A stretch of DNA of 64,000 nt from Leptogorgia sarmentosa (lineage: Eukaryota). The DNA lies in the NCBI GenBank assembly GCA_964658305.1, contig OZ210885.1, forward strand, positions 744,001 through 808,000, given 5' to 3'. Shown one piece after another: positions 1,173 to 64,000 of this stretch. The position numbers and the translations under genes are program-made. How positions within the stretch are numbered: the stretch's first letter is position 1; every line of letters begins with the position of its first letter. Under the pieces are notes generated by a model. The model saw only the letters and a list, made by a program, of their open reading frames with translations. It made no database searches and was not told the DNA's origin.

Positions 1173-1427
1173 GGCGAGTGCGGGAAGGCGAAGAATTGTA
1201 TAGAAATTTAACTGATGATGATAACTTCAAGTGTCCACAAAACTTTGCTCCAGTCTTCTTTCAAGAGGCACTAGACTCTCTCGACCCTGCCTTAAGAGCG
1301 CAAGCTCAAATGGTGTGTGGCAATGACCTCACGTGTCTCTTCGATATTGCTGCAACAGGAAATGTTGCTCTTGGGGAATCAACTTTATCCGAAAGCACTG
1401 AAATTCAAAATGACATTACAATCCTAG
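1173..1427 (+). CDS. Gene A exon: Cys-containing region following VWD (WRVREGEE...VCGNDLTCLFDIAATG)
   Basis: C-x4-CLFD-x3-TG motif as in MUC4/SUSD2-type post-VWD regions; near-identical to 33869-34123, which directly follows the VWD exons of gene B. Confidence 0.85.
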
Positions 1428-4400
1428 GTGAGCAATACGCGATTTAAATTATAGTAATAAGCAAAAATAGGTTGGTCATCTTTCGCATCTGCATGATATC
1501 TAGTGTTAGTTTAGGTCAGTTCAGGAAATTTTGTAAATTGTAGGAATTATTAGAGATCCATCACTTACCTATTTGTATTAATTTTTTGTTGCTTTTTTTG
1601 TTAAATTTCATTTTAATTTATTTTAATTTCTCCCTCAGGGTGGCATAGCTTAGTATGATTATTGTTGTTGCTTCTTATCACATCCTCAATGTATATAATT
1701 AATTGTTTTAATTCTTATATTATTAGTTTACCCTATTTTTTACATATATTTATTTTCACAAATATTTTACAGCGTAAAATTGATCCAATTCAATTAAATT
1801 ACTAATCGGTACTCATCCTGTTTACAACTGTGTACTCTACTAAGACTATCTACATTTACACTTAAGAAATTATTTAATTCCTCCTATAAACCACGGTTTG
1901 ACATGCATGTAATTAAAAAGATTTTAAGAATATGAACTCCACTCTTTGCATATACCATACTTTACTCAGAGTAACCAGCAGGACATGAACGATATCTTTC
2001 TTGCTACCCCTTGACCACACAAGCTCAGTGTTGAATATTGAAATTAATTGAAAATAAAGTCAAAAGTTCAATCCCTTTTCTTCCTTCCCTTCATTCTTTC
2101 TTAGAGAACAACGTACCTGTTTTTACCGAGAACATCACTGTGATCAATGTGACTTTGGGGGAGACGTTTGTATTGCGTTTAGACGCAACTGATGCTGATG
2201 GTGACCCACTGACCTTCGATGTTCCAAATCTTCCACCAAATGCGATGTTCAATTCAACAGGAAACATTCTTTATTTCTCCTGGAATGTAATTTCCGCAAA
2301 GGAGGTACTGATGTAATTTTTGGAAAAGGAAGGAAAATTTTCATTATTAAAATCTATAGCAACTAATAAAAATGTTCGATTATTGAATTTTTTAGACAAA
2401 CATTACGTTTTTAGTTCAAGATACAAGAAATGGTAGCTCCACATTCTCTCCTTCCATCACGCTTTGCCGTTGTGTCAATGGCGGCGAGTGTTTTGTTCCA
2501 GAAGCAACATCAGCGGAAACCGCAGCAGCAGTTTCTGCGTTTCTTGTAATGTCGTGTAATTGTCCAGTTGGTCGAACAGGGGAGTTTTGTGAAGCTGAAA
2601 ACGATTTTTGTCAAGGAGAAACGACTCCGCCATGTTTTCCTCTTGTTACTTGTACCAATAGTCCAACAAATTTCACGTGCGGTCCATGTCCCACTGGTTA
2701 TGAAGGAGATGGGATCACTTGCACAGGTATAAAAGAGACTTGATTTACTTTCGAATGTTCGATTTATATAATTATTATAGTTCATTTCCAAGCTTACATT
2801 TTAGGAATTTCGCTGCATAGTAATGCGTAAAATTAGTTATGTACAAAGATGTAGTTTCCTTCTCTTTTTGGGGCCTCGTAGAAATACTTTTGCACTCAAC
2901 AAAACTCACAGAGGAAGGCAAAAATTTGGCATTTTGCAATGCTTGGGCTGGCTAACAGTTTCGTAAAATATAAAAATACACAATATTCAAAGACAGTATA
3001 TTTGAAAATATATTGACCAGCATGCCTGAAAGTTTGGACTTTAAACCTGCGCTTAGCGGCCACGGTATTCCATAACAATGAAAAATCATAGAATTTGATC
3101 GAAAAGAAGAAAAGAAATCGAAAATCATACAACAGCATTCTGTGTACTGTGGAGCGAAATCAAGTTGCTTCAGATAATTAAATTTGAACGATTTTCCTAT
3201 ATAGGCCTAATAAACATTCGACTTGCTTAATTCTTTATTGAACCTATTTATTCAGTATAAAATAACCATAAAACATAGAGATGTCGTATAAAAAATGTTT
3301 GTAGGAAGACCTTTTGGTATATGCAGTTGTCGTGACCAGTGGATCGATTTGCTTTGTGCATTTTGGCAAAAAATAATTTTATCAACCTGGGGCCGGTTAT
3401 ATCATTTAGCTTAAACGGTGGATAAGCAAAATTTTAAAAACACTCCTATTCATTGTGCATGTAAATAATTGACCTGAATTTTATCAAATAATATTGTAGT
3501 TCCATGCAAAGTTGTTATGTTTAGACACAAAAGTTTGCTGGTAGTCAATAGTTCATAATTTTGTTTGATATTTTTTACTTACAGTATCCACCGTTTAAGC
3601 TAAACGGCTTTGATACAACCAGGTGATACAACCGGCCCCTGAACGTGAAGTGTGCGTGAGTGGAACATACGTGTCGAAAATACTTTCGTAATTTTGAAAA
3701 CTGGTTTACCTTATGCATACTTTACGATTTCTTAACCTCTTCAAATTTTAATGCTTTGTTTGTCGTGCATTGCTTTTTTTGGAGAATACGCAAGTAAGCT
3801 AAACGGAAGCCTCGGTAACTTTAAGCTCTTCGAGCGAGCAATAAAGGGGTCGCTTTCTATAAAATAGCAGATAATGCGCCATGCAGTTCACTGTTCACAA
3901 TTCGGCAGCTAAGTGTACATTTGAGAAGGAGTTTTATTTGAGACAAAGGAGTTGGTTAGAATTTGTATTTTATTAGAAAACCTACTTAAATTTGTGTCTT
4001 TGTTAGATCTTCTGTTTCGGCATTTTCTTGTTTTGAGAGTACTAAACTTCCCTTATGCATCAAAACAATGTGATTATGTGAAGTGTAAACAAAAAATGTA
4101 AATGTTCCTGTATTTGCTGACTTTCCAACGTGCAACTGATAATAATTTTATTTAAATTACCAGTCATATTTCTTTTAGATATTAATGAATGCAGCAGTAA
4201 CGCTACCAATGAATGTGATCAAATGTGTACGAATACTGATGGCTCTTATCTTTGTACATGTGGCAATGGTTTTTCTTTGGATCAGAATGGAAAAGTTTGT
4301 AATGGTATGTCAGTTTATCAGTAGAGATAATTAATAGACATAGCAAGGACGAAACTTACCAACTGATGTCTTAGACATGTGTTGGTCACTTTACTGTACA

Positions 4401-7400
4401 AAAACGTTAACCTTTCAAGGGTGAGGCCGCTGATCAGCAGAAAAACGTGAACGCGTATGAAGCAAAGTGCCAAAATCCTTCGTCAGGAAACTTTTCCTAT
4501 AAAAGGCTATAAAAGCTTTCTTTCCAAACTTCGAACTTAGTTGAGTTTACACATGTGTAGTTTCATGATATTATATAAATGGAAATATGTAGAGGGTACT
4601 ACACGGTGGTGCAAAGATATGAATTTTATCTTCGACTGGTGAAAGCAATATTTTACGAATGCGCGCAGCGAATGAATAAAATATCATTTTATCACGAGAA
4701 TAAAAAATTCATATCTTCAAACCGCCGTGTAATTTTCTATCTATTATATAGTCGGAAAGCCCACACAGTAAAAAGAAAAGGGCCATTTTGGCCCCATGGG
4801 GCCGTTTTGGATTTTCAAAGTGCGAGCCAATTTGGCGCTACTATAGGGTCAAAACAAAAAATAGGGGCCATTTTGGCCCAATCATGGGGCCGTTTCGGTT
4901 CCGATGTCCGAGCCATTTTGGCCCTATTGTAGTGCCAAAACAGCCAACAAGGGCCGTTTTGGCCCAATGGGGCCGTTATGGCTATTTCTAGGGCGAGCCA
5001 TTTTGGCCTTAGTATGGAGCCAAATCGGACGCAAGTGCCGTTTTGCATATAGAGCCAAAACATTTTTATATGGTTATATGCAGGGCGGTTCTGTTTAATA
5101 ATACTGAAGAACTGTTTTCGCTTAGTTGTTATCCAAATATCCTGTATGTATGTTTTGTCGGCAATATTAATTTTTGATCGATAATGCTGTATTTTTCAAC
5201 TAGTTGCATCAAATTATCTAAATTCAATGAATACCTGGTCATCGTTTTAGTGTTTTCTTGTAGCATTTGCATTTTCCGAACACAAATATGCTGCTTTTTC
5301 ATAGAACAAAAACAAATTGGTTCGCTGCTCGTAGACAAACGTCGCTATTTTTGAAACAAATTTATTGGCGCAAATTGCGATTGTCAATTGGCGTGATTGA
5401 CATCTTCATCAGTGAAGATATGGAAAATATCTCACTGTGTAGTTTTCGGTATCTCACTGTCTACTATATAATAAAATTGTGTATAGCTACTTTGAATTGT
5501 GCTATAATATAGCAACATTGTTGACGCAGCATTCAAGCAAAAACGGGAATGGAAAAAAAGACGAGAGAAAATGTAAATTCCATCAGGGCTTCTCTCTTAG
5601 TACTGAAAAGTTACTTTCAATTATTATGGCAAAAATAATTGTTCTCTCATTATTTTTTCTCTCAAAAATTTTTTCATTGCTCCAAAACTCTATGTCTGGT
5701 CTTGTTGATGTTTCCTGAATTTTTCAGATGTCGACGAATGTAATGGGGCAGATGACTGCGATCAACTGTGTAACAACACAATTGGGTCATACGAGTGCTA
5801 TTGCAGAATCGGGTTCAAAATCAACGAAACTGACATGACAAGATGTGAAGGTAATTGACTATTTCAAGATAATATAATACCAAAAATGATCTATAGGAAA
5901 ATCAAGTTAGTTGTTAGTTGACTGTAAATACTGACAATCCTCCTTGTGACGTGAAACCGAATTCAAATATTATTAAATGAAATGTTAATTAAAAAATTAT
6001 CAAAGCATGATAAAAAAAATAATTACGAGAAAAAAACGACTTATTATAGGTACAATAATTTAATTACAGAATAAAAATTTAGCCATAGAGTGTATTCGTG
6101 GATATGTGTAATTTCACGTAACCAATTATCATGAGAATATTCATTGAAACGACTTTCAATAAGTAAAAAATATTTTTTAGCTCTACTCGAATGTCCAAGA
6201 GAAAATGTATGCTCCGGGGAAAATGTGATTTGTTATATGGATATGTTGGACCCTGGGGTAGAAAAGTGTACTTGCCGTGCAGGATATGAACTTCAAGAGG
6301 ATCAGAGATCTTGTGCAGGTTTGTACATTAAACAATAGAGACCTTAAGATTGACGTTTTCTCTCGTTTCCCGCAAACGACAAACTTCAACTCGAGGTTTG
6401 CGGTTCGACGTTTGAGGGATGATATTTTCAAGATTTAAGATTGGCGTACTAAAGAAATCCGAGATGGCTTCCTCGTCCAGAAATCATAAGCAAACTTGGG
6501 TTTATGAAATATACATAATAATGTGATTTTTGGTTTACCATAAAACATTCTTTAAATAGCTAAGATGTTAAAGAGATTAAATTTATATCTTAAACATGAC
6601 ATTATATAATTTTAATGGTGTAAAAATGTTGCCGTAAGTCACCAACCTCAAGAACGCCTTCTTCCAGTAAAAACGGGAACCTCAAACCTCAGACGGACGG
6701 CAGGAGTTAAGTCACGTGACTTTTTGCGGTTCGCGGGAAACGAGAGAAAACGTCAATCTTAAGGTCTCTAATTATTGGATTCTTTGACCCTAAGACGGCC
6801 CGAACCCTAATCAGCCCTAACCCGGTCCTATAACCTTAAGATAACGGCAGATAACACAAACCGAACGTAACATAAACCAAATTCAATAATTGTTTTATTA
6901 GTTATTTCTATTTTGATCGGACTTAGGGTAAACGCTTGTGTTGTGAACAGGGTGAATTTTTCTGGGAGGAACCTTTCTTTCGTCCTAATGTCGCATATGT
7001 TTGATTTCATGCTCATGCACAAATCTTAACCAAACAGAACTGTTAAATTATTTTCAATAAATAATAAATACTATTATTATTTATTTAAAATAATTCAAAG
7101 GTTTTAATTGGTTAAGAGCAGTGGGTGAATTCGTCATATCTGCTCGATAAAACACATATACGACATTATGACGTAATCATGTCGTATATTGAAAATTATA
7201 TGACATTATGACGTCGACTAATTTATGCTGCTTATGTTAAAAGCGGTGAAAAATACACGTTCTTGTTTACAACGCAACCGTTTACACTAAGTCGGGTAAT
7301 AGTTATGTAGTTAAATGTTTCTAAAAAGAGGTCGAGATTTTCGTCAAGTTATGGTTGAGAGTATAAAATCAGAGATCAGTATTGAATAAAAAAATATCAG

Positions 7401-10400
7401 TCTGGAACATTGAACTAAAAATAATTTAGCGTTATTTTTAGTTCAATGATCTGGAAACGATTCGAAAATTATTGTTTATTAGTTATGGTGAAATGGATAA
7501 CCATGCAGTGTTAAAGCCAATTAAACTCCAGCATTGGCAACTGTATGAGCAAGAAAATTTAACTACGTTATAGTTAAACATTTAGCGATCAGTGTTGCTA
7601 TTTAATTATCCAATATACAACTATCTATTTTACTGCCTTCGGAGGAAGCACTTGTTATGGCTGTGTACTTTCTTCGGCTCGTTGTCAATATTTAAACATT
7701 AAAACAATCTAAATTTATAGCGTTTGTCTATATACTGATCTGAAAACTCATCATATGATACTATACTACTTTAATCCTTTTCCCCAACTTAAACTTCCAG
7801 TAAGACAACACGCACATTATAATCCTTACGTTTGCTTAATACGTTGTTTCATCACTAGTCTCAAAGAATTTGTAAAAAGGCAGGTCACGTTCCTTATAAG
7901 TTGAGAATTCAGTGATAAACTCGATCGTTATTTCAAAATTTTCCCATGTGGCAAGTCCGAGAATCTTGGGAACAAAACAAACAAGTTTGCTGTTTATTTA
8001 ATGAACTTGTTTAATTATTAAAACATCTTTGATTCGCTCATTTTTAGACATCAATGAATGTGCAACAACCGAAAGCAATCTATGTGATCAGATCTGCACC
8101 GACGTAGACGGAGGTTATACCTGCTCCTGTAGGGAAGGATTTGTTAGCAGCAGTGACACAGCTTGTCAAGGTTTTGTATTTTATTCATTTGTAGCATTAA
8201 TATGTTAAGTATACGTGATTCATCTTTAACGTTCCAGATTACCAGTTGACATTTCTGTTCATTAGAAAGTCTAGAAAATTGCACTAGTAGAAAATTAGAG
8301 CGAAATTTGCAATAATAAACAGCTGACCTTAACATTAATAAAAAGGCTGCTGAATAAAATTGTGGTCTATTATATGTTCAATTTTCGCGTGAGTGAGGTA
8401 TGGTATTGTAGAAATTGATACACCAGGCGTAGTTTAAAAATGAATATTGAAGCCAGCAAATAATGTTAATACCAAACATATTATAACAACAATTATTAGC
8501 CAATTTATTTGCTAACATTTCGTAATAAACACGTTAAATTATCAGGGGTCGGTTGTTCGTAGCCTGTTTAGCCTAAACGGCGGATAAGTCAATTTTAAAT
8601 TGCACTCCCAATCGCCTTGTGAGTAAATGAACATAAATTTTAAGCACTAAATATATAGTTGTATACATAAATGTTCCTTTCCGATTGAAGATTTTATTTT
8701 TATCGTTCAATGAATACATAGTCTTGTTTGATATTCTGGACTTATCCGCCGTTTAAGCTAAACGGCGTACGAACAACCGGCCCCAGAAATACAGTTGTGC
8801 CTCGTATAATAAATTCCTTATTGAATGGTTTGACATGCAATACGGCCTGGTATTTTACTCGTTTCTCGCATTTTTCTATGAAACTCGTAAAATACCAGGC
8901 CGTATTGCATGTCAAACCATTCAATAAGCTATATGTATATTATTAATTTTGTTATATGTGTGGTATTAAAATTATTGTGAGGTATAGTTTTTATACTAAA
9001 AGGGATATCTCACTTTGACCATAAATTAATATACTAATTTATTTTGACGAACTTCTTTTACTATTTTAATTTCCAACTCAACTTCTCTTTTAACCTGTTA
9101 CTGTAGACATAGACGAGTGTTTTGAAGGGAACTTCACTTGCTCTGGCGTTGAAGAATGTGAGAATCTCGCTGGAAGTTACAGGTGTTTGTGTCCAGAGAG
9201 GCTCAACATGGTCAGAGTCAATGGAACGTGTGAATGTAAGTGCTGCATGTAAATTAATTGGGGACAGTTTTCAAGTTGAATGTATCAGCGCCATTGAGCT
9301 ACCTACCATTGAGCTGTCCATCTGAAGACGGATCGTTACTTAAGGAGTACGTTTGATGTGGTAAATGGCTACAGTACTGACTTTCATGAGTTGCAAGTAT
9401 CTACATTGTTGTATGGGGTTATTAAAACTACCAAATCAAAGGTCGTTTAGGTCACTTAAAAATTCAGTTCAAGTTATTCCAACATCAAAATAATATTCGT
9501 TATCAAATAACGAATTGACTGTGAAAGTTCATTTTGATTCAGTAACGTTCTATAATACTGCAAATGTTCGCATGAATTTATGTGTTTGTAAATTTACTTT
9601 GGGCATGTTGATTTTGCCTTGTCATAAGACAACGATCTGTCTTTGGCATCAGGGACAACTAAATTTGTATATTATGCAACTTTGTGGATTTCGGTCTTTG
9701 AGGTGAGCCCATATTCCCGTATTTTCTGTCGAAGGATTTGTGTGTTTTAGATAGCTAGGCCATGTGCTCTGGCTGAATTGTCCATAAATATTGTTGGGAA
9801 GAAAACAAAATTGTGTTAGGGATGAAACGATGTGGAGTTTCTTGAATTAATGATACACTGCCTACATTTTGAATTCAGCAACCACCAAGCCTGAGGCGAC
9901 TAACTGTTTTAATATAAATTATATTTTTAAGCCTTAAATTATATCCTTTTATCCCATAATTATTTGTGCACTTTTTGAACTGTTGTTTACATCATAGCGT
10001 CAAAAACCTAGCTAAACAGGAAATTTGCATGGGACCAAGTTTGTTCTTTGTTGCATGTAATAACACTTTCAATATCTTCATTTATGATTGGTATTTCGTA
10101 TGATTGGTATTTTGTAATTATTGACCTCTCTAGAGGTGGCCATCGCCTAAAAGTGGGGCTTTTTTGACAAATCAGATTGCATGCAGGAAATGTTCTATTC
10201 GCATGAATTTATATACCAACTTGATAGGTCAAACAGAGTTAACCCTCTTTAAAATTCTCTCCACCAGTTAAAGACGAAGATACTGTAGAGGATATGGCAG
10301 ATCCTCCGCAAAATGCGACACAAGAACAGGAGGATAACTCTATTGAAATAACTTTGAAGAATTTTCAAAGTGAAAGCGTGAGTTTTTTATGTTTTAGAAT

Positions 10401-13400
10401 CTGTATAATTGTAGATACCTAATTTTCGTCTTTCGTCATATCTGAGAAAGACATTTCATACCTATATTGGAATTTGGCCGGCAAAACGTGAAATCGGAAA
10501 AAAAACATTTGTCTCAGCTGCATGACATTATAATATCTTTCATTTTTGCTCATCCAAAGTTATTTATCTTTCAGACAACCAGACCTTAACGCTTATCATT
10601 TTTTTTTAATTTTAGTACACCGTGGATGCTAACATCAAGTTTATAGATTCAGTTGTTCAAATAGTTAACGAGTTTTGTAATGAAAACAGATTTCGACCTC
10701 AAGATTGCGGCGTTTCCCAGTAAGTCAGAATAATTTTTTATGCTATCACGTTGCACTCATCGACCAATTTTTTTATATTTTATCACGTGACAGGAATACT
10801 AAAGTAAGTTAATTAATAGATGTGAAATTGTGATGCACGGGGCAATAATTTATTTTATACGTTTACAAAAATTTTAGTTGCTACTTTTGATGTGAGATAT
10901 ATGATGTGACATGATTGGAGTTACACCAATTTCAATGGCATGGACAAATCTATCGATCAATGTGTTAAAATAAAAAAAAATTAAGATATAGTATTAAATT
11001 ACGGGTCGAATGTTTTCCCACAAAAATATTTAGGTGATGTTTTCTACGACAAATATTAGATGAATTGCTTGGCATGAATTCTGTGCCTAATTTCATTCAA
11101 AAGTAACTCATGCGACGTATTTTAAGGCACTACTTTTCTTAATTCAACATACTGTATATACATAGTATTTACCGAATACCGACACATATTTTCTTTACTG
11201 ATAGAAACGAAATCTTATTCAACCAATTAAACGTGGAACGCCTGCCAGGCTATCCCCAAAACAGCGGTGTCAACACAACAATCAAGTTCTACGTTGATTA
11301 TCCAGAAATTGTAAGAACAGGATCACTTCCGAAAACAACACTGGCATCCATAGTGTTTGCCAAATTAGAGAGATTTCAAAATCTCACTGGTTATTGTATT
11401 ATTCTCAATACTCCTGTAACCCCAGACGCCCCGGCAGATCCAACTGATGATCAAAGAGATAACGCAATCGTGTTACAAATAATTGGCTTCAGTGAAGCTC
11501 AGGTATTAGCTATATCTGACACAGATTTTAGTAAAATATTATTCCGCACAGTTACACTAATGATCCATGCAACCAAAAACTTAAATTTGTGCCACGTGTC
11601 CAATAATTAAGATTTTCTGGCAAGAACCATGTCACTAGGAAAGTTCAGTGTCTCTCGGTTTTCCTCTGGGGGAAGGTCTTCGAATTTTGAAATATTCTGA
11701 ACGGGATATTGGACTTTTGAAATATCCTTCTTGTACCCAGTTTGCCAGTAGGCCGAGGGATATTTTGAATTCGAATTGTTAATAACTAATTTTTCCCTAA
11801 CACACTATAAAACACATCTAGCCAGATCATGTCAGCAAAAGAAATTCCGACAATGGAGAAAGTCTTTATCCACAAAAACGATCATTGGGTTTACGTATTT
11901 ACATACACAACCTGATTTATCATTTTTCTTTCTTTTCTTTCTTGCAGTGGACAATAAGTTATGATAACATATTCCGTCGTTCAGTCGCTCTTAGTCTGAC
12001 AAGATACTGCAACATTGAGAATGACGACTACCCTCGTACCCGGGACTGTGAATTCTCAGGGTTAGTGTGTTGCTGTTTTTTCTATGTGGTTATAAAGTGT
12101 TTGATTTTATCCCGTCATGAAAAGTTCAATAGAGCTCAAAAATTATACCTGATGATGTTTTGTTTCGCTGCTTGATCACAACTACCGGCGCGTGCGCAAC
12201 AATACACGATCATAGACAATTTATTATTATGCCTTCACTAAAATGAAAGGTGTCGAATATTTCCCTCGTGTGCTCAGAGGAAAGGCATCAGCTTCATCAG
12301 CGACGCGATATCCACACCTCCAACAACTGACCCCAAGGTGCCGGTAACAGCCGGTTGTTCGTAGCCGATGCATTTAGCTAATTAAACAGTGAATAAGTCA
12401 AAAATTTAAAATACACTTCCTTTCATCTTGTGAATACCTGAACATGAATTATACAAGTGTTCTGTTCCGATTGAAAATTTTTATTATGATGCATATGGTT
12501 CTCATTGAACACATGAACTTGTTTATATTTTGGACTTATCCACCGTTTAGGTTAATTAATGACATAGTGCATTTAAATTGCTATAGCTTAATGCAAAGTT
12601 GAAGCTCTTTCATTTATTATAATAAAATCTTATATAAAACTTTTCAGGTCGGTGACAAGCTATAACCTCACTCATGTTGCACGACTTCCTGGATATCCCA
12701 AAGACGCTGCATCGAATATTGTTAACGTTTCGTTTTATGTCACAAACCCGAGTACATCAACTCCAGTTCCACGAAAAGTACTTGCATCAATGTTGCTCAC
12801 TCAGGAGTCAATTTTAGAGAACGCGCTTTCTCAGCAAGTAGTATTACAAACCTTTGCTGGACCAGATACTCCACCAGTAGCAAGCAGTGAGCAAATTACT
12901 AACAGTGTTGTAATTCGAATATCGTCATTTTCACGAGAACAGGTATAGTATAAATTTGATACTTTGATTGATCATTTATATTAATTTATTTCTCGCGTGC
13001 GCTTTGACTGTTAACTATTAAGTTTATCTCGAATGATGCGCCGAATCTGTTAAATTCCCTGCTTGAATGCCTTTTTTTCGTTTTCGTTACAGTGGACATA
13101 TCTGAATGATCGCCGTTTAAGAAGAGCAATATCAAATCGGATTACGAACTTCTGTAACCAAACTAGCCAACGTCGTCTCGATTGCCAAATCACAGGGTAA
13201 AATATAATAATACTGATATACGGCCTGCGCATGCGTAATGGATGATCAACATGAACAAGCAGCGCACGTTTCCTTTCTCCTCAAAGACCCTTTCCACTTA
13301 TTCATGACGAATGGATTTTGAATATTTTTAGCGTTTCCCACGTTCTTCGGGACGTTACATCACGTCATATATATAGCATCTTATAATTATATACAATTTT

Positions 13401-16400
13401 TTCTTTTTGCAGTGACGTTGTGTTGTTCACGGAAACTGACGTGCACAGAACATCATCAGTCACGCCTTCTAATGTCGCTGGTAACAGTATCGACTACAGT
13501 TTTTACGTCAACTACCCCAATCAAAATGTTCCAATTGTTGGCAATATATTAGCATCGATTGTGAAATATGAATTGTTAAGAATGCAATCGGAATCTGCTC
13601 TTTTCTTCTCCCTGGAAACATCGTTCAGTCCTTATGCACCCTCGCCGCCAACATCAGATCAGTCCAGCAATACTGTACTGATCAGGATTTTTAATCAAAC
13701 GTCTACTGAGGTATGTAATCTTTATAATGTTTGCCCTCGTTTAAACGTATACCATATTCTGTTCCACACACGTATATTCGTCCCATATTCGTTAATTTTT
13801 CGTGTAAACATAAACAAACTCTCATAATAATGAGTAATGACAACTTCTGTTCAATTGACTTTTTCTAATTTCCTTGCAGTGGACGGCTATTAAAGACAAC
13901 AGATTCAGAAATTCAATATCAAACCAAGTTGGTGCTTATTGTTCAGATTGTTTGATTGCGTGCGTCCTAATGACAAGGTAATATAAAGACCGTAAAGTCT
14001 TAAAGTTCAGACAAACTGGCTAAGCGCTGAGTGCACGAGACATGTGATCATTGCTTCTGATGCAATATTTCCCAGAATATTATAGCGGCAATACCACATT
14101 ACATTTTAACTCCAAATATTGCTACCAAAATATACTTTCTACCAAATTGCCCTGATTATTCTGTAAAATAATGGTTTAAAATGAAATTGAATATATGTAT
14201 ATTATGTAATTTGTTAGGTATGCATTAGTTATGATTATGGTAAAATCAAGTATAAGTGACATGTTTATTAAATATTCTGTATTATTTTAGTGACCTGACA
14301 TCGTTCTCACCATCAAACGTGACTCGGAATCAAAGTTCCCCTGTGCAAGATGGATATCATGTCATTTATACTTTGTTTGTTGACTATCCATCTGGCAGTG
14401 GACCAATTCAGCAAAATTTACTGGCAGCCATTTTAACTATTCGACTTGAAAATATTGAGAACGAAACCAATATGAGACTTGAAATAATCACATCAATTCT
14501 GGCACCGTCTCCTCCTGCTGCCGACTCAAATAAAACTGACGAATCAGTAACCATGGTAGCACGTAATATTAATGCCTCGCAGGTAATTAACAAATATAAC
14601 TTCGTTGAGGCAATGAGACTGAATTACTTTTATTTCACGAAATATCTTGGAATCAGAAGTATACCAACTGTATACTGATTGTGAATACACCTCGAGGGAG
14701 CTCTGTATTCAATTATACTATTCTTTGTGTTCATTTGAGATAGTTCGTGGACGTTTCCACTGGTGATTTTATTCTGCATGCAATAAGTAGTATTCCCAAC
14801 ACCAATATAAAGTCTTCAAGGCTTCGGCCATATCAGCTATCACCTCATAGAAATCTGGAGTTCATAACCTAATTAAATTGTTTTTCTGTTTCAGTGGTCA
14901 GCCATTCAAGATAACAAATTCCGTGGGTATGTTGCCCAGGCAATTGGCGAATATTGCACAGCAAATGATGCACAACGTGATGAATGTGACCTTCCCACGT
15001 ACGTTTTTGACTAATTTATCTCATTTTATCACTTCCTATACTACTCCTGAATCTAGGAAATGGCTAATTTATTTTAATTTATTCATTTAGAAGAATTATT
15101 ATATCCTTAATATCTATATAATTATTCTTTGCCTGGCGTTTGTCGTTTGACGTTTGAACGTGTAGCTTAAACTCTCTAGTTATAATTCACATAGCGGAGA
15201 CGTTTGAAAATTAGAATTTCTCACCACAAAAGTATGTATGAATGTTTGCCGACCTCTTACTGTTGTTTTAATAAAGTTTTCAAATACTCGCGTTTTTCAT
15301 CCTTCCATATTATGCGACATTAGATGGCGTCACCATTTTTGAAGCTGCTCAAAGATTAAAAGATTATTTATTCGGTTGCATGACAAACAAGAAATTTCGG
15401 AAATATCACAATTTTTCTATTAGCTATCACTTTGTGGTTTTCAAAAAATTTGTGCCCGTAAATTTAGGCATCTTTCTGAAGTTAACGTTTCTTCACCTCA
15501 TTAAACACAGACGGTAGAAGTGACCTTTTTTGATAAAACTGAGTTGTTAATAATTCTTGATATCAGAATGAGTAAACTGCATGTAGTCAATGACAAAATC
15601 AAAATGCGGTAAAGTTGCACTCGCTACCTGAATTATAAAACAAGATGCAACGTTCTCTAGCTGGGTTCTTCGTCCGGAATTTGTGTGGGTGGTCGAGAGA
15701 AAGTACCCGTAATTTAAAACAAATGCACCACACATGTTAAAATAACATGTGACAAATTTAAAAGTGGTTGAACCAACAATGTATTAAGGCATCATATAGT
15801 TTCCTTTTTATTTCCAGGCCAAGAAGGAAAAAACGAGCTGCAACGTAAGTGCATAAGCTAACTTATTTCACTTCAAGAAACTAGTGACCTCCATGTTCTT
15901 TAAATTATACTACCACTGGGTGATATTGCCTCTTTTATACTTCCCAGAGTAACGTGGCAAAACTTTATGTTGTGCCTTCAAAACTGGGAGCTCATTTGCA
16001 TCCCCTCCCCTGATCTACCTTTACTCTGCATTCATATTTTATTCTCTTTAGAAATGACGCTTCGTTTACACAAGATCACGTCCAACGTGTCCCAGGTTCA
16101 CCCTCACAAGATGGCACTGATTCTGAAATCGAATTTTATGTTAATTATCCTGGTGGTGGTACAATGTCTAAGGAAATTTTACTTTTGATCATGAATGAGA
16201 AAACCGACTCTATTGCCAATAATACTGAAATGGCTCTTGTGTTGATAACTCCCGAATTTCCAACACCTCCTCCAGCAACACGCAGTCAAAATGAAAGCGC
16301 TGTCTCTGTTGTATTGAAGAATTTCCAAGTGGGCGAGGTTTGTTTGTCTAGAAATTAAAAAGAAGAAATTAGAAATTAGTGTCCGATCGACACTGTTGAG

Positions 16401-19400
16401 CTTCAAGTTTAAAAGCTCTGTTTGCATGCATCGTCTACACACTTACAATTTTTGCTGCGAAATTTCTATAGTACGGTTGTCTCCTTTTGATCGATGTAAA
16501 CGGGAAAACCAGTCACGAATTTTCCAGCGAAAACATGCACTTAGCGTGTTTGTTATCATTCTACTCAATCACATCATTCAGAATGAGAAAATCGTAAGCG
16601 CGGCTTTTGCCAGCACACAGTAATCAGAGTGATAATTTGTTGATAACCAAGTTTACCCTCACCTAACTCCCAGGCCGAATGACGTAATGGTAAAAAAGGT
16701 GAATACAAACAAAGCGTCAAGAAGAAATGTAAAACAATGTAAAATGTCCAAATTTTGGATGAGATAAACGATAGCTGTAACGACAACTATAACAATGTCA
16801 ATATGTAGAGTGACGTTAACTTATTTCAAACTTGCCTGTTCTTTTAGTGGCCTGCCAGAGATTTGCCGTTCCGACAGAATATGGCCAAAGAAATTCAGGA
16901 CTTTTGTAGCACTTATAACACTCTTTGTAACATCACAGTGTGAGTATTGTAATATCACAGCATTATAGACATCGTTTCTCAATTCCGAGCAAGTCTCATG
17001 GTTGCAGGTTCTTACGTATTATATACTATACTGTAACAGCAAATGTAAGAACAAGTTGTTAAATTTAACATTAATTACAAATGCTCGTGTGAGTTAATTT
17101 TCATAACATTACTGAATCACTTTTTCCATTAATTCGTGTTGTTCAGATCTGTGTAGTTGTACATAATTACTCCCTTTGTCAGCGATATTCGTTTCTCTTT
17201 CAGTGACGACCTGAACAGCCTCACAAGTGCTGACATTCAAAGACTGCCAGGTTCTCCAACACAAAATGGCACCAATTCAATCCTCAAATTTTACGCACAG
17301 TTGACAAGCGGTAGAGTTATTCCTAAAACCATCTTGGCCACCATCTTCGTAGAAAGACGGGAAAAAATATTTTCACTTGACAGCAGTCTGGAAGATTTCA
17401 CAGAAAGTTTTACATCTGATGAAACAGTTCTTACTGCAGAACAACAACAAAATACAGTTCCTATTAAATTAATCAACTTTCCTCGTTCAAAGGTGAGTGC
17501 AGCAGCTCTGGGATGGTTGATTTGTTGGTGTTTGAGGTGTATACGTATTTCTGATTTATTCAGTCCCATTTTTCGCAAAATGTGCCTTCTTATAAAACTA
17601 TGTTTGTCTGAAATGAAAAAAAATTCAATACAATTTTGGAAAGTTGTTTTTAATTTTGTTGACACAACCATGAGCAAAATTTGGTTTTGTGGTCATATAT
17701 TTTCTTAAGTATTTTTATTTATATATTAACGTTGAAAATTCAAGCCATTTTGTTAAATTACACTTCACATGAAATATATTTCATCGTGATTATGTTACGT
17801 TGTGTTCCCTTGCTAATATAGTTCACATCCTTGCGAAAGATGGATATCAAAGCGTCAGTTGCACGAAGAATGAATATCTTTTGCTTTACAACAGCTGCAG
17901 ATACGTGCGGTATTACAAGGTAGGCATATGTACAATCAATTTCTACCATTTTTAGAACATGAAATGCACAACAGGAATAAGATTTTGTGCAACAGATAAT
18001 GAATCTTGTTGTATGAAAATATAATTAGGTCTAATGTAATGGTGTCCTTCTTGTTAATAATTATTGAAGAATAATAAGTAAACTGCAGTCATTGCCGAAA
18101 TGAAAGTGATTGACGAACTCTGGGACGTTATAAGGCATCATATTTCTTTTTATTTCCAGGCCAAGAAGAAGAAAGAGAAATACGAAGTAAGTGCATCACC
18201 TAAATCATTACAATTTCAACTCGTGAAACTAGTGACCATTGGTTTTTCCAAAAACTTTAATATTAGTGACGGATCTTAATTGAATATAAAGAATGTGGTG
18301 TTGCGACAAAATAATGAAAGATGATAAATAACATTTTTCACTGGAAGAGTGTTCGTTCTACTTTGGTGTCAGTGTAGCAACAAGGCGGCAACGTCAAATG
18401 GTATATCTACTTCAACACTGAGGAGGTCTCGATATAACTATAACATTTGACATCGTTTTTTAATAAAAAAATCATAGCTAATCTTGCCATGTTATTGTAA
18501 GTACCAACCATCCGTCGATCTATACGTACAAGAGATAATAGATAACAGAAATAATACAGAAATAATAGATATATTATATACGTACTTCAATATAGCAGAA
18601 GCTCAGGGGCCGGTCAGTGTGCGAAAGTCGGATAACTTTATCCACTGGATAGTGATTTTTTTAACTGTTGTAAAAATGACGCACCATCTAGGATCTAATA
18701 AATGCAATTAAGATCTAAATCAATTACATCTCTAAAATGCTCACATGTATTTCCAGCAGTGAACAATTCAGTGAAAATGACGTCATAGTTACCGACTCCG
18801 TCATGGCAGCCGGAAATGATACAGTTATCAATGTTGTTGTGAACGAACCAGGAGAGAATAACTCAGTTCCAGCTAATATTGTTGAAGAAGCAATGCGTGA
18901 ATCCATTGAAACTGATAACACATCACTCATTACTGGTTTACAACTTGCTCTTGTTAATACACCGGAAGTAATTACAACCAATCAACGTTCCAACGCAGTC
19001 AGTGTTCGCTTACCAAACACTCAGGCGAGTGAGGTGAGTTGATTCATTAATCATTCAACGAAACTTCTCAAACAGGTAGATCAAAGATTGGGTGAACATG
19101 GCTATAAGGTTAATCCTCCCATACTTTAACAATTTGAGAATGGAATTATGGAAATAGTTTTAATCCTGTGTTATTATTTGCACTGAAATTAAACCATGTT
19201 GTTCAAATGAATACATTTTAGTGGCAATTTGAGGATGAAATATCATTCAGAGAAAATATGTCGGAAGCCATTAAACAATTTTGTGTAATGAGTGCGTTAC
19301 ATCTGGATTTGTGTGGCCTTACTAGGTATGTATAACTATTAAGGCATTATTAAGGGTTGCGATTGTTCAAAGTTCAATATTTGGCCATAACAAACGCTAA

Positions 19401-22286
19401 TTCCAACAAGGAGCAAAACGTCTACTCACACATAAATATGACACATTAAGTGTCGACGTTTCGAGCACTGATTCCCGATGAATGGCCTTAAAACGTCTAA
19501 ACGTATTGTGTCCCATCGTAGAACTTGTTGGTGATCTGGATCAATGTGAAGTTTTTATCTCTTTGGCGTTGTGAGATATACAGAAATATAATAATTATAT
19601 ACATGCACCAAGTAAAATAAATCAACATTAACTAAATTATCAGTTGAAAACTGAATTATCAGCCTGTATGTGCCATCTCCTTTATATCGTAGCTATATCT
19701 ATGCAGATCAACGTTTTCAGATGCTGTTGAGTTCTCCCTGCTAAGAGTTCTCCCTGCTAAACCGTTAAGGTTTTTGCATAAAATATAAGTGTGAAGAAAC
19801 GGCTTAACAAAATATTTCATTATAGTGCTCAAGTTAATGAAATCCAACCCTTGAATGTGAGGACATTGCCTGAATCTCCAAGTCAAAATGGAACAGACAC
19901 CATACTGTCGTTCTTCGTGGATCTGCCCAGTGGAACAACTATGCCTTTGGATGTTTTAACAACAATATTCAAGTCATCACCAAACATCCTTTCACAACCA
20001 AACAGTGTTAGCTCAGCAACAAGCGAAAACGTTAACCCTGTGCTTACAGATGCTGAGACTAAAAACCTCGTTCCATTGTCCATAAATATCCCAGCAAACC
20101 AGGTAAAATATCCCCAACATAATAAGTTTCTTCCAACTTTGGAATCAATATTTCGAGCTTTTATCGCCCATACTAGTTTTTTTTTTAAATAGATTTAGAA
20201 AACACGACGCGACGTCAAAGACCACGTGAGCATGGCGTGCGTTGCACATGTAGTGGACATGCCACGACAGTTGTATTTTGTCTTTGACGTCGCGTCGTGT
20301 TTTCTAAATCTAGCTAATGATGAACTAGAATTAAATTCTGTACAAATGGATATAAGATTTAGATAAGACGAGAAAATTTACTCCAATTAAACAAAAAAGT
20401 TTGACTGTTTCTCAAGAAGCTCGATTCCCATAATTATCATAATTATTCAAACCTGAAGCATTTTTTGCGCTTTAATTAACGCCGTTTTAACTGTTCATAA
20501 TTATAATTAAAGTGTGGTTTGTTTTTTGTTAAAAATATGTAGTAACGCTATTATAACAACACAATTATTGACCGTAATTATCGGTGAATGTTTCCAGGAC
20601 TTATACGGAGGATTTATTTCGACTTTGGTAAAATAATTATCGTTTTATAGCAAATTTCGGAAAAAAATACATTGCCTTTGGCATTGTCAGGAGAGGACAA
20701 TTTCAAAGTGACGACAAAATTCCATCACTGAAAACGTAAATAATTTTCAACTTACCAGCGCCCTAACACAGCATTTCAGTACAACGTTTACTAAAAATCT
20801 GCATGATTCATTGCGATATTTATTTTATGTTGGTTTGTTTTTGCTTTCCTAATCTACTTCAATTATTATCAAAATATCTTTCTTTCGTTTCAGGATGTAA
20901 GACTGGATATTCAGGTTTCAATAGCGCACAGACTCAATGAATATTGTAAAAACAATTCCCAAGCTGAACTTTGTCCCAGCAGTCGGTACGTGATATTATG
21001 ACACAACTAATGTTTTTGCTATAAACATAGGTAGCCCAGCGCACGCATGACGTAGTATTCATAATAATACTATACTAATGAATACTACGTCATGCGTGCG
21101 TTGGGCTACCCTATATGGTTATGAATGACAGTTGTTGTACATTTTAATACAAAAATGCACAGTGAGTTGTCATATGGAATATTGATTTGAGATGATAATT
21201 ATGCAATCATAATTATAATCTAATGATCAGAATTTTTGCCACAATGATCAGACAAGCCTGCCCTATCATGCCACCATTTTCAATTTAGCGAGGAGCGAGT
21301 GGTAAATAATAATAATGTTTTTACGAATACAACAGTGTACAAAATATATGTTTAGCATTAGGCTCGTTGACATTTGTAACTGAAAAATTAACATTTATAA
21401 AGCAATGTACAAAATATATGTTTAGCAATTAAGTTGCAAAACAGCCGGAAACAAAAAACCTGACCCGGCCTCACTTCAGAAAAATTGTGAGAAAGAGATA
21501 GGCGTATAGGTATGCACATTTTGTCTAATATTTCTATAATTTCTACGCTTATTTATTATTATATCAGGAACTTCACCAAAGATGATATTCGTGTTGTTAT
21601 TCATCGTAACAATGGCTCTGTCAGTTTTGTGGTCACTGATCCCGATACTGGATCAACACTTCCCGTGAACCAAATACAAGAAGCAATCAGTGGAAAGTTC
21701 AATTCCATAATTTACGGTCTACCACTCACAGTGTCTGCTAACGTTGATGATGAAGAAGATGAGGACTGGCCATTGATAATAGGATTAAGCATTGCTGGAG
21801 CATTTATGTTTTTACTTCTGATTGTTTCTGCGATTTATGTGTAAGTTCACTGTTTGTTTTTAACAATTTAAGAACGAGTCGCGTGTTTTTTATAGTGTAA
21901 TTATGCAATTAATGTTAGGAAATGTTTAAAACCATAAATTGCTTTACTTCTTCAAAAAGAAGAAGGAAAAAGCTTTGTTTTTTGTGTTAAAATTTGTCGA
22001 TACGATGAGATTCGATCTGTGTGCTGTTTTACATTACACACTGCGAAAATGTCACCTTTCTATCTTTTGTATCGACTAAAATGTTGTTTATTTATTTTTT
22101 AGCATGACAGTTCGTTCTGGCAAAGTACAGGGTAAAGTAAATCTAGGCTGGAGACGGTCTGTCTATTCTGGTCATTCTGATGGCGGTTGGCAATTCGACA
22201 GAAATTCACCATACACTGGGTCACCATTTTCAGAAATTGATGGTATACCCGGCTTTGATGCTGATGGTCTGCCATCAAATATTTAG
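1173..22286 (+). CDS. Gene A (5'-partial, spliced): mucin-4/SUSD2-like type I membrane glycoprotein: VWD C-terminal region, cadherin/Ig-like domain, 7 EGF, 9 SEA-like modules, TM, cytoplasmic tail
   Basis: Frame-consistent GT-AG exons: 1173-1427, 2105-2304, 2396-2726, 4179-4304, 5728-5850, 6181-6318, 8048-8170, 9107-9235, 10268-10377, 10616-10719, 11205-11502, 11948-12060, 12648-12942, 13093-13196, 13413-13710, 13880-13977, 14291-14582, 14895-14998, 15818-15844, 16052-16337, 16848-16939, 17204-17492, 17822-17919, 18160-18186, 18757/18760-19033, 19222-19325, 19826-20102, 20894-20985, 21568-21840, 22103-22286 (TAG). Nearly all have a counterpart in gene B. Confidence 0.88.
2105..2726 (+). CDS. 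Gene A exons: cadherin/Ig-like domain (NNVPVF...ATDADGDPLTF) plus two EGF-like domains
   Basis: N-x2-P-x-F and A-T-D-x-D-G-D cadherin-like motifs in 2105-2304; CVNGGEC...CNCPVGRTGEFCE and a second 6-Cys EGF in 2396-2726. Confidence 0.85.
3387..3641. mobile_element. MITE, family with ggggccggtt...aaccggcccc TIRs
   Basis: TIRs plus internal inverted tttagcttaaacggtggata/tatccaccgtttaagctaaa; relatives at 8543, ~12349 and ~41221. Confidence 0.75.
4179..9235 (+). CDS. Gene A: five phase-1/1 EGF exons, four with the calcium-binding consensus
   Basis: 4179-4304 DINECSS, 5728-5850 DVDECNG, 6181-6318 ALLECPRE, 8048-8170 DINECATT, 9107-9235 DIDECFEG; 6-Cys spacing with C-x-N/D-x2-G-S/G-Y-x-C-x-C. 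Confidence 0.9.
4587..5475 (+). mobile_element. Non-autonomous dispersed element (5' hairpin, 3' end ...atataataaa) with a nested GC-richer insert
   Basis: Hairpin 4601-4730 (acacgg..aagatatgaatttt / aaaattcatatctt..ccgtgt); absent from the equivalent gene B intron. Confidence 0.55.
4762..5062 (+). repeat. Degenerate minisatellite-like array of ggggcc(a/g)ttttggccc motifs
   Basis: About ten imperfect copies of gggcc(a/g)tttt(g)g; resembles subterminal repeats of a DNA transposon end beginning cacacagtaaaaag. Confidence 0.7.
6337..6769. mobile_element. MITE with ~36-bp perfect TIRs (agagaccttaagattgacgttttctctcgtttcccgc), flanked by AAT on both sides
   Basis: TIRs read directly; AAT at 6334-6336 and 6770-6772; absent in the gene B paralogous intron. 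Confidence 0.85.
8543..8786. mobile_element. MITE, ggggccggttgttcgta TIR family
   Basis: ggggtcggttgttcgtagcctgtttagcctaaacggcggataagtc ... gacttatccgccgtttaagctaaacggcgtacgaacaaccggcccc. Confidence 0.8.
8817..8928. repeat. Perfect 42-bp inverted repeat with a 28-nt spacer (foldback remnant)
   Basis: 8817-8858 is the exact reverse complement of 8887-8928. Confidence 0.9.
10268..21723 (+). CDS. Gene A: nine tandem ~135-aa SEA-like modules, each a short phase-0/2 exon plus a long phase-2/0 exon
   Basis: Short exons (10616, 11948, 13093, 13880, 14895, 16848, 17822, 19222, 20894) share W-x6-7-F-R-x2-V/I-A/S...F/Y-C-x5-13-C. Long exons share V-x-R-L-P-G-x-P...F-Y-V...L-A-x-I...N-S/T-V-x-I. The repetition is seen directly; the SEA fold is inference. 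Confidence 0.75.
12349..12555. mobile_element. Degenerate copy of the 8543-8786 MITE family
   Basis: gccggttgttcgtagccg ... ttttggacttatccaccgtttag; internal sequence similar to 8543-8786. Confidence 0.6.
15818..15844 (+). CDS. 27-nt microexon encoding a furin-type site (T)PRRKKRAA(T), gene A module 5
   Basis: tttatttccAG|gccaagaaggaaaaaacgagctgcaac|GTaagt; phase 2/2, frame-preserving; R-x-K-R consensus. Confidence 0.8.
18160..18186 (+). CDS. 27-nt microexon encoding a furin-type site (R)PRRRKRNT(N), gene A module 7
   Basis: tttatttccAG|gccaagaagaagaaagagaaatacgaa|GTaagt; phase 2/2; equivalent position to 49953, 54729 and 59505. Confidence 0.82.
20190..20312. mobile_element. Short MITE-like element with perfect 33-bp inverted arms
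   Basis: tagatttagaaaacacgacgcgacgtcaaagac / gtctttgacgtcgcgtcgtgttttctaaatcta. Confidence 0.8.
21028..21113. repeat. Short palindromic MITE-like element
   Basis: ggtagcccagcgcacgcatgacgtagtattcat / atgaatactacgtcatgcgtgcgttgggctacc, one mismatch. Confidence 0.8.
21568..21840 (+). CDS. Gene A exon: end of module 9, acidic juxtamembrane stretch and transmembrane helix
   Basis: ...NVDDEEDEDWPLIIGLSIAGAFMFLLLIVSAIYV, a ~24-residue hydrophobic run; donor gt|GTAAGT at 21841. Confidence 0.88.
22103..22286 (+). CDS. Gene A terminal exon: cytoplasmic tail ending ...DADGLPSNI*
   Basis: Polypyrimidine tract plus AG at 22101-22102; phase 2 matches the TM exon; stop TAG at 22284-22286. Confidence 0.7.
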
Positions 22287-28246: not shown

Positions 28247-31200
28247 GTCCTACAAGAGATCCTGATGAGGGAAGCGGGAACGGATTTGGTAAATTAAAAC
28301 ACATTTCTATCTATAAACACAGAACATCATAATTATATGTAAATGTTTATCTCGCATCCAGAAATGCAAAATACTCATTCAATGATCAAAGTAACCGCAC
28401 ACAGAATTCAGAGTGAATCTTAGGAGATATAATCATAAAAAGAAATGCCTGTTTGTCTCACACACTTCAAAACATCTGAAAAGTTGCTGTTTTGAAATTT
28501 GTCAGCAGCAGATAATTCCTATCTTTTGAGACAGGCTGTATTGGTGAATTTTTTGTGATAAAAACTACGCAATTTGCGCTATATCTATGATCTATCGAGC
28601 ACTCTTTTTACATTTAATAATCACCAACCAAAACAGCAGACGGCGCAGCAAACTAACAGATATCTTTCGCTTTCTTTAGGCCCAGTGCCGCCATTACCCA
28701 TCCCAACAAACACCACCCCTGTTCCCTTTGATGGTCGTTGTACCAGGTTTTCGCTTCCAAAACTTGGATTGTGGTTCAATGGGATAAATTTCAGACGTCT
28801 TTCGGTAAGTTACATTTCTTCAAAGATTTGACTTCATCAAAGTAGCCATTTTCCAGCTGATCTGGGCAGGACAACAAGTTTTAAAACGAGCGAGCTGAAA
28901 TTATAAATCAAAAGATGCCTCATTCTACCAATTTCTTCTAATAAACGTCTTTTTTTCGGTTTAAAACGTATAGAATTTGAATGATAAAGAGAACGGTCAC
29001 TATATTATACTAGCCTTATTTTTGATTTTGTAACAGAATATATGGCGATTATCAATACTGCGAATTTAAAAATTTACCAATCACACAGTGGGCAATAAAA
29101 ATTGTTTATTTTCGACTCCAAATTTTCCTTTCCAGGTTTGTCCGAACGGATTAGTAAGGTTTCGCGGGCGCAGGTTTCAGCCCAATCCACGAAATTTTGG
29201 CACCTATCGCAACCAACGATCTTTTGCCTTACTCGCTCCTTACTGGTGCAATGCTGATCTGAATTCATTTGAAACTGGAGACTCGCAGGTGTTTTTTTAT
29301 ACAGTCACAGTCGAGAACCAAGAAGAGAACACGGAACTGTTTGACATGGCTAGGGAATATGGTAACACGCTCTTAAAGAAAGTTGATTACGATCCATTGT
29401 GGGTTGGTGTTGTTAGTTGGCACAATCTCCGACCAAACAATCCTGGTAACTTTGAGCCCGTAAGTACTACCCGTGATAATGGTATTTATACTCTACCTAG
29501 GTGCAATTTTGTCTCAAACGTGCCACTGCTGCGTAATTAACTGCAAATCAATAAATTTCACTTTGAACTATTTAGTTTTCTGCTTTACCTCATCATCGAA
29601 CAAATTACGTAATTATTTTTTTCAAGTAAAGATTTTTTCAGCTTAAAAAGTAATCAATTATTTTGTCATTTGATAAAACAACCGCAAACATTTTCTTTCT
29701 TAGAAAAACTGTTTTGATATGTTACTGGCAAACAGCGTTTTGGATGAGACGATTGTCGTGTACAGATATGTTGATATAACTTGGGCTGTAAAGGCATCCA
29801 GGTATACGAATAACTTATTTTTTGAAAACAGTGCATGTACTGTATATAAAAAATAGCTTCTAAAACGCCTTTTTACATTTCTTGTTATAATTATAATGAT
29901 AACTATACTACTGGGCCGGACACCTTCCTCTGGGACTTGAAGATCACGAGCTTGATCACTGACGAACAACAGAACATGTTAATTCAGGGTGTCCCAGAAG
30001 AAGAAATCAATGCATTGTATGAATTAAAATGCCCTGCCCTTCTACATGGTGTCCCCCCCAAAAAGTCACCTCTTTGAAAATCAGCTTTTTTGTTGTCAAA
30101 CGTGCGTTGTTATGCCTTTGAGAATATAATTGAATGGTTCATGAACGACAGTATTTATAACAGCACGCGCTTTTGTTTAAGTTCGTCAGAAGGTAATTTA
30201 AATTTCCAGAGGTGTAATAACCCGATAACGAAAGAGTGACTTCATTAGAGGGGACTTTTTTAGTACACCCTAAACCTAGGAGTGCATGAAGATTGGGATA
30301 ACTGTCGTAATTAATGATACATTAAAAATGCTGGACATTCAAATTCAAAGTTCAAACAATGGTGTATTTTGATTCTCACTTTCTTTCAAAGGACATAATA
30401 AATAGTTGCGTGTATAAAAACGATGTTTTAAACAAAATAGACAACCACGCCCCTGTGCTTGATGATGGACTAATATCTTCCTATTTTTTAGTGACAATTT
30501 GGCAAATTTTCAAACAGCTAGTGATCTACCAGTCATTGGTTTTCGCATTGGATCGTTATTTCAAAACTATGCAGGGTAAGATTATAATTATTCACACTTT
30601 AAAAATAAATCCTACCCAAATGTAGAAGACGTTTGGGTTTTCATTCGCTCAAACGAACGGTGACATCATGCATCATTTCCCATGAGTAGAAAAACCCTGG
30701 TGTTCTTGCCCAACATTAAACCTGGGCAAGAGTATATAAACGTGGAAAATATAATGTTGTTTTTAATGACATCCATTATATTTGTAATAATATGGTTTTT
30801 ACTTCAAAAAGTATCGTGCTAAGTATCGTAAAAGCTACACAAAGGTACATAGTCAACACGAATTAAGAATAACACGTTTCAAATCCTGAACAGGTGGAGA
30901 ATTAGCATGTTGGTTTGGAAATAATAAAATTTTAATGTAGAATCTATTATATTGATTTACGTTAAAGATCTGGTACTGTGAATGTCTCAAACGTGAACGA
31001 TTTCTCTGGACCGCTGCTGGGGAGGCCTGGACAGATTGGGATCGTTCTCAACGATGGGCAATCAATAACGCTGTGCAATAAATGGTTAAATGAACAATGC
31101 CGTGAGGGTCGTGGAGCATTACAGTGTCCACTACCTTGCCCTCCAACTTATAGAAAACTAAGGGTTACAGTTGGATTTGATTTGAGGTACCGATATAGGA

Positions 31201-63948: not shown

Positions 63949-64000
63949 GTGAGTGTAACAAGTCTGAAATTAAATTTGTCCGACGTTTAGCGAATGAGTC
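62970..64000 (+). repeat. Intragenic tandem unit copy 4 (truncated by the window end)
   Basis: Matches 57524-58554; exons 63150-63250 and 63660-63948. Confidence 0.92.

Follow-up and report, generated by a model that had tools for sequence, protein, structure and literature searches.

Gene A, the upstream member of a tandem pair of MUC4-like genes in the window (the whole 64,000-nucleotide stretch analysed here), has probably gained a second furin-type site, through the copying into module 5 of a 360-bp piece of module-7 intron that carries a 27-nt exon; the exon is spliced, and the cut predicted from it lies two modules further from the membrane.

Two tandem MUC4-like paralogues and their microexons

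Self-comparison of the window places two paralogues in tandem on the + strand, gene A at about 1-22 kb and gene B occupying everything from about 31 kb onwards.

1175..22283, + strand: gene A (3' part; its 5' start lies outside the window), with C8, EGF repeats, nine two-exon modules, a hydrophobic membrane segment and a short tail
30969..64000, + strand: gene B, starting at the first exon matched to an outgroup protein, with vWD, EGF repeats and modules 1-9
after modules 1-9 and continuing past the window end, + strand: 3' part of gene B, tandem repeats of modules 6-9

Both genes share a layout of nine modules, each opening with a small exon of phase 0 to 2, which encodes a predicted helix and a pair of cysteines, and closing with a large exon of phase 2 to 0, and the models of the module regions are open, without stops, over 1182 codons in A and 1455 codons in B. 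A single-exon Pfam scan returned vWD in exon 33338-33661 (PF00094, 26.4 bits against a cut-off of 22.9); MUC4-type C8 was matched at 1175-1417 (PF23263, 52.3 bits) and Ca-EGF with 33.7 and 32 bits (PF07645), and the single membrane segment is a hydrophobic run closing exon 21568-21840, read from the translation without a predictor. The Cys-rich exon 30969-31487 gave no AMOP match in the Pfam scan and aligned at 38% to the N-terminal part of the outgroup protein P0146; a search for long homologues of this AMOP-like exon found none. The closest named homologues come from the octocorals Dendronephthya gigantea, Paramuricea clavata and Xenia sp., with 52-55% identity over the module region to those of Dendronephthya and Paramuricea, and because of this the window is likely octocoral. 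Both genes likely encode MUC4-like membrane proteins, octocoral by homology. Two outgroup proteins, P0144 and P0145, carry a precomputed PF26284 match, a family that the local Pfam scan did not return.

Within gene B, modules 6-9 recur over 47968-64000 as three complete units and an incomplete one, arrayed in tandem with a unit length of about 4.78 kb; comparison of units 2 and 3 gives 1 difference in 3077 bases, and that of units 1 and 2 gives 83 in 4703. The junction exon 52418-52649 is chimeric, a module-9 large exon whose terminal part is the 3' end of a module-7 large exon, and it bypasses the membrane segment. In Dendronephthya P0146 and Xenia P0086, module 9 likewise runs back to module 6. 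An extra stretch of about 670 bp in an intron of repeat 3 (60602-61276), which has weak matches to other introns of the window, is probably a recent mobile insertion.

A pattern of acceptor plus microexon (the 27-nt exon being of microexon size) matches the window at five places, 15811, 18153, 49946, 54722 and 59498, against a chance mean of 0.5, and none of 100 shuffles reaches five. An in-frame scan of the introns between small and large exons, nine in A and nine in the first copy of B, found furin mini-exons in 3 of these 18, namely in module 5 of gene A (A5) and in module 7 of both genes (A7 and B7), and none in B5. Contigs from other samples were also compared, covering 5 of 16 listed runs: X4 and X7 are DNA from one study, and X8, X9 and X11, from one study, are taken as RNA from their GT..AG joints, no run being recorded as RNA.

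15818..15844, + strand: gene A module-5 microexon, 27 nt, phase 2-2, PRRKKRAA (R-X-K/R-R motif)
18160..18186, + strand: gene A module-7 microexon, PRRRKRNT, in an eroded cassette
49953..49979, + strand: gene B module-7 microexon, repeat 1, PRRRKRAA; a B7-type exon is present in an X8 RNA contig
54729..54755, + strand: gene B module-7 microexon, repeat 2
59505..59531, + strand: gene B module-7 microexon, repeat 3

Between the A7 microexon and that of the B7a copy, 7 of 27 bases differ; A7 keeps the basic motif, and its residues after the site have changed.

The additional segment in module 5 of gene A

The module-5 introns of A and B align up to 15448 and 47258, respectively, and resume at 16003 and 47292, with mismatches at 30 of 495 aligned bases in the shared flanks. 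Between these points, A5 holds 554 bp (15449-16002) where B5 holds 33 bp (47259-47291). The initial annotation had described a microexon cassette in A5 with no counterpart in B5, and alignment, intron scan and shuffle scores bear out its presence; the length of about 540 bp then given to the A-only stretch was slightly short.

14895..14998, + strand: gene A module-5 small exon, with predicted helix and Cys pair; RNA joints
15446..15542, strand not given: 97-bp piece, found also at another locus with 2 substitutions and a 5-bp indel
15544..15903, + strand: cassette, 360 bp, comprising the microexon with about 274 bp of upstream and 59 bp of downstream intron; homologue of module-7 introns
15904..16002, strand not given: 99-bp piece, present in X4 and X7 contigs
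16052..16337, + strand: gene A module-5 large exon; gene model, RNA joints and fold model
47259..47291, + strand: 33-bp counterpart in gene B, with branch-point-like CACTAAC; the same 33 letters in X4 and X7 contigs

The A-only 554 bp is a three-part composite of 97 bp, 360 bp and 99 bp, within which the microexon has consensus AG/GT splice sites and an open gene model. The 97-bp piece extends 3 bp into the common flank, and a single base pair separates it from the cassette; it forms the middle of a 575-nt X8 contig, with about 236 unrelated letters on either side there, and its indel form has single-locus depth in the DNA runs X4 and X7. Contig depth at that other locus is 329 in X8 and 392 in X11, with no cover in X9. 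Two substitutions in 97 bp are few for a divergence of 8% (p 0.017; p 0.26 with a constrained donor), and separate, later capture of this piece is possible. The 99-bp piece shows no homology to the module-7 introns, to B5 or to the local flanks and has no source in the window; the 33 bp of gene B, likely the ancestral sequence, match neither the A-only segment nor the local flanks. Local templating was found for neither the 99-bp nor the 33-bp piece (best case 39 of 500 shuffles), direct or inverted repeats of at least 6 bp are absent from the segment ends, and a search of Rfam gave one chance-level match, of 19 bits against a cut-off of 50. One patchwork insertion that replaced the 33 bp is the simplest reading. 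A transposon-borne exon was rejected, since terminal repeats of at least 6 bp are lacking and most of the segment has the depth of a single locus in X4 and X7. Branch-point-like motifs, suggestive as motifs, occur in both genes, that of B within the 33 bp at 56 nt before the acceptor and another in A at 39 nt. Elsewhere in these introns, 217 bp of the B5 intron (46860-47076) are absent from A and have no second copy in the window, and short intronic pieces at 15120-15178, 14681-14718 and 18624-18678, found in many genomic copies among the contigs of X4 and X7, are probably repeat fragments.

The cassette scores 349 against the B7b copy, 240 against B7a and 94 against A7, values reached by none of 300 shuffles in each case (means about 21). 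In a MAFFT alignment that includes the exon, A5 has mismatches at 21 of 242 positions with B7a, 27 of 292 with B7b and 46 of 191 with A7; pairwise comparison of intron only gives 15 of 207 (7%), 24 of 258 (9%) and 23 of 151 (15%), respectively, so that overall A5 lies about 9% from B7 and 15-24% from A7. Across 165 shared columns, 32 set A7 alone apart and one unites A5 with A7. The tree node that places A5 is weak (41%), and part of the A7 distance may reflect fast erosion or misalignment. Outside the cassette, the exons and introns of modules 5 and 7 have no detectable nucleotide similarity, and for that reason the 91% identity of the cassette does not stem from old common ancestry. Homology between A7 and B7 extends past both cassette ends (scores 67 and 45; 0 of 500 shuffles), and in module 5 the similarity stops sharply at those ends. 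Against the B5 intron the cassette scores 20, which is chance, the shuffles averaging 20.8 and 208 of 300 scoring at least as well, and this result together with the in-frame scan ruled out a degenerate B5 microexon; no remnant is present.

A5 is the longest copy of the cassette: it has a piece after the donor site in common with A7 that is absent from all three B7 copies, and it retains 43-bp and 12-bp pieces that are missing in B7b. Because A5 keeps pieces without counterpart in all three, none of today's B7 copies served as the donor; an older copy from which these three descend, or an unseen one of similar kind, would fit the sequences. The earlier proposal that the microexon had been copied between modules together with its flanking intron thus finds support, the likeness of modules 5 and 7 being confined to the cassette, as does the special affinity of 15546-15903 to the module-7 intron of gene B over that of gene A, which the flank comparison recovered. 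The two findings that would have spoken against it, a decayed microexon in B5 (sought by in-frame scan and shuffle test) and flanks of indifferent affinity, did not emerge.

The other samples carry both arrangements. In X4 and X7, the B junction, its 33 letters unchanged, has depths of 7.2 and 6.4, contigs spanning the left junction of A have depths of 5.8 and 7.0, and the 97-bp/cassette junction and the right junction are also spanned; A and B forms thus occur in both DNA samples (2/2) at similar depth. An assembly artefact or an allelic pair was ruled out, since the window has the two forms one after the other and X4 and X7 each contain both. Among the RNA contigs, X8 and X9 have the 27-nt exon between the module-5 small and large exons (depths 2.9 and 10.4); these exon-bearing joints end in A5-type letters, and in X9 the downstream side is that of A without difference. 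Exon-less module-5 joints with B-type letters have depths of 5.0 in X8 and 21.9 in X9. No exact A-type skip of the exon is present among the joints listed for X8 and X9, in contigs, which drop rare forms. A third, exon-less joint type occurs at depth 4.3 in X8 and at 36.5 in X11, where it is the only module-5 joint among those listed; candidates for its source are an allele of B, a further paralogue and an allele of A that lacks the exon. The microexon is polymorphic at 15827-15829, reading RRKKR in the window and X4 and RRRKR in X7 and in X8/X9 RNA, as in B7; both alleles seen keep R-X-K-R.

Age, direction and rival histories

The introns of A and B fall into two divergence groups, about 2-11% and 14-28%, a pattern that would fit conversion tracts overlaid on a duplication of greater age. 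Measured against the upper group (10 of 17 introns; 286/1502, 19%), the cassette is younger (p below 1e-4); those ten introns were chosen after inspection, and the background of all 17 pooled (344/2640, 13%) weakens the case for a cassette younger than the duplication. Divergence of the cassette is not different from that of the A5/B5 flanks (24/258 versus 30/495, p 0.10, range 0.10-0.61), and since its age is not separable from homogenisation of those flanks, the clock alone gives no direction. Identity between 12648-20102 of A and 43591-51680 of B is a patchwork, with exons 1-14% and introns 2-28% apart, and other samples hold alleles mixing A and B letters; both observations point to ongoing gene conversion.

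Direction comes from the outgroups. Module 5 has B5-like length in all four models that span it, with a 9-residue gap relative to A and the insert in 0 of 4; these are P0144 and P0146, from two Dendronephthya loci, and P0145 and P0148, two Paramuricea models on one contig. At module 7, the motif is present in 3 of the 4 models that reach it (P0144, P0146 and Xenia P0086), the remaining one, the partial Paramuricea model P0043, being unrelated there and without the motif. These states are those of gene predictions, which may miss 27-nt exons, although those of Dendronephthya captured the site in module 7. Lingula P0132, which has one such module, carries a basic motif at the same place, and on this basis the motif is old at that position, unlike the module-5 site in A. 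As outgroup module 5 is without the insert and outgroup module 7 has the motif, gain in A is favoured over loss in B, which bears on the question of polarity that the initial annotation had left to orthologues and further paralogues; the site was likely gained by A recently, from a donor resembling B7, rather than lost from B. Metagenome contigs scanned with protein patterns and a 22-nt pattern yielded nothing.

In the preferred account, an ancestor of the present B7 copies would have been the donor, and the cassette would have brought its own splice sites into the equivalent intron of module 5. The copying itself would have been a homology-independent templated insertion, that is, break repair with template switches, because 33 bp were replaced, an unrelated 97-bp piece was joined, and there is neither flanking homology nor a transposon end. 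With 27 nt the frame is preserved, and the phase-2 intron, the only one from which the basic motif is read, would yield that reading at the new place.

Among other histories, it is improbable that the cassette entered B5, or a conversion tract of A and B, first, was converted to A and was then deleted from B. An intragenic copy from B7 to B5 would account for the B7 affinity, conversion between A and B is evident near module 5 (exons 2-4% and flanks 6% apart), and the ages of cassette and flanks are inseparable; however, the route requires three events, and B5 offers no remnant, only the unmatched 33 bp whose branch-point-like motif is as expected of native intron. More improbable still is an unseen third paralogue as donor, perhaps together with the 99-bp piece, which would make the B7 likeness indirect. 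The indel pieces of A5 described above, the third joint type in X8 and X11 and the lack of a source for the 99 bp in the window would all suit such a gene, but the only cassette pieces among those listed from contigs matching at 88% or more are of A5 and B7 type, and the indels have a simple explanation in deletions that the B7 lineage underwent later. The idea that the microexon was original to modules 5 and 7, with flanks kept alike by constraint, and was lost in B hardly deserves credence: the old position of the motif in the module family, as in Lingula, is in its favour, yet 360 bp of intron are 91% alike where the coding exons have no nucleotide similarity, and the motif is in 0 of 4 outgroup module-5 models.

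The consequences of the insertion are a separate matter. That it happened as described and is functionally neutral, with the exon tolerated in a loop and the site uncut or without effect, is unlikely, if less so than any of the alternative histories. The exon has neither the length nor the age that a test of selection requires, and in X9 the exon-less B-type joint is deeper than the exon-bearing one (21.9 versus 10.4), contig depth being a poor measure; against this, R-X-K-R is kept in both alleles, module 7 across octocorals and the Lingula module keep the motif at the same place, and the cassette or the spliced exon is found in all four other samples examined closely (X4, X7, X8 and X9). A wider proposal can be put forward tentatively, and may well be wrong: the microexon and its short flanks would be a portable break-point cassette, pasted once and without need of homology into the corresponding intron in A, where it was spliced from the outset as a new cleavage site, and multiplied in B by the tandem duplication of modules 6-9, with selection driving both paralogues to more cleavage points by different routes.

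Predicted cleavage, module fold and known systems

The microexon contains a furin-type R-X-K/R-R motif, its place in an extracellular loop being inferred, and from this motif furin cleavage is predicted. A and B differ in predicted cleavage map at the level of motif and transcript. The ancestor would have had one site, in module 7, and gene A two, in modules 5 and 7, which would delimit a two-module fragment; gene B is predicted to have at least three, all module-7 copies that arose via tandem repeats. In both genes the module-3 helix contains R-L-R-R, which the outgroups are without and which is probably not a site. Pfam SEA gave no match for eight single large exons or for P0144. A single-exon model reached pLDDT 81 with a strand-strand-helix order, and its fold search gave a best Z of 3.3; neither that search nor PDB sequence searches returned anything informative, and a single-sequence fold of P0086 gave no usable model (pLDDT 38). 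In the Atlas comparison, SEA clusters scored 0.82 and KIAA1549 clusters 0.81, scores under 0.9 counting as leads only, and 8 of the 10 best family matches fall in one clan; the SEA-like nature of the module is accordingly a lead. GSVVV is absent from the aligned large exons. The basic motif lies upstream of the first strand predicted in the large exon. If the module is ferredoxin-like, the site would fall between helix 1 and strand 2, past both cysteines, with no disulfide across the cut, and the halves would be expected to stay bound via the sheet until force or shedding. The furin cut in the ectodomain of A would then lie two modules more distant from the membrane, within a loop of a SEA-like domain and after the Cys pair, leaving halves non-covalently bound until pulled apart or shed. 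The neural microexon programme that depends on the eMIC domain of Srrm234 is of bilaterian origin according to the portion of PMC8797185 available, and eMIC-type regulation of an octocoral microexon is unlikely. A search of titles and the start of abstracts, with subscription journals outside its coverage, found no published report of the present case.

Exon shuffling moves symmetric exons by intronic recombination and is usually inferred for whole domains and old events. The present case is similar in that a phase-symmetric exon with flanking intron entered an intron of the same phase; it is unlike the usual ones in that only a 9-residue motif was moved, and in that donor, junctions and empty site are still readable. 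Exon shuffling has mostly been argued from old events whose junctions are lost; in the present case the donor, the recipient, the empty site, the state in outgroups and the product of splicing are all legible. Some 360 bp of intronic sequence were enough for a microexon to be carried to another intron of a non-bilaterian, and for this reason the splicing signals are directly testable in a minigene.

Cnidarian mucin4-like proteins have a NIDO-AMOP-vWD-EGF order, some with a C-terminal SEA, in the sections seen of PMC9080433 and PMC4890752. The vWD, MUC4-type C8, Ca-EGF and membrane segment are found here too, and the mucin4-like paralogues of Dendronephthya are tandem as well; unlike those proteins, the present ones have nine or more SEA-like modules, unrecognised by local Pfam, and a cleavage motif on a microexon of its own, a feature not described in those same sections. 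The furin exon of ApoER2/LRP8, in the accessible part of PMC6213145, encodes 13 residues in frame and adds an ectodomain furin site, with a released fragment. Here, likewise, a tiny in-frame exon adds a furin-type motif to an ectodomain, with cleavage predicted; ApoER2, as that part has it, switches by alternative splicing in one gene, whereas here paralogues differ through exon-intron copying. The SEA domains of GPR126, MUC1 and Notch are cut in a loop between strands 2 and 3 and their halves stay together, and the furin site of GPR126 differs by lineage between human and zebrafish (PMC6954182, in excerpt). To the extent of that excerpt, the protease motif here is alike in lying in a loop of a small alpha/beta domain, the SEA-like fold being a lead, and is unlike in its predicted earlier position, between helix 1 with the Cys loop and strand 2. 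Teneurin paralogues also have different predicted furin sites, as paralogues A and B do, and the part of PMC3278476 consulted describes no transplant of an exon cassette, unlike what is seen here. Exon shuffling and furin mini-exons are thus known already, and this is an unusually clean and recent case of them, in which A and B form a natural protein pair for the effect of one extra cleavage point on a large octocoral surface mucin.
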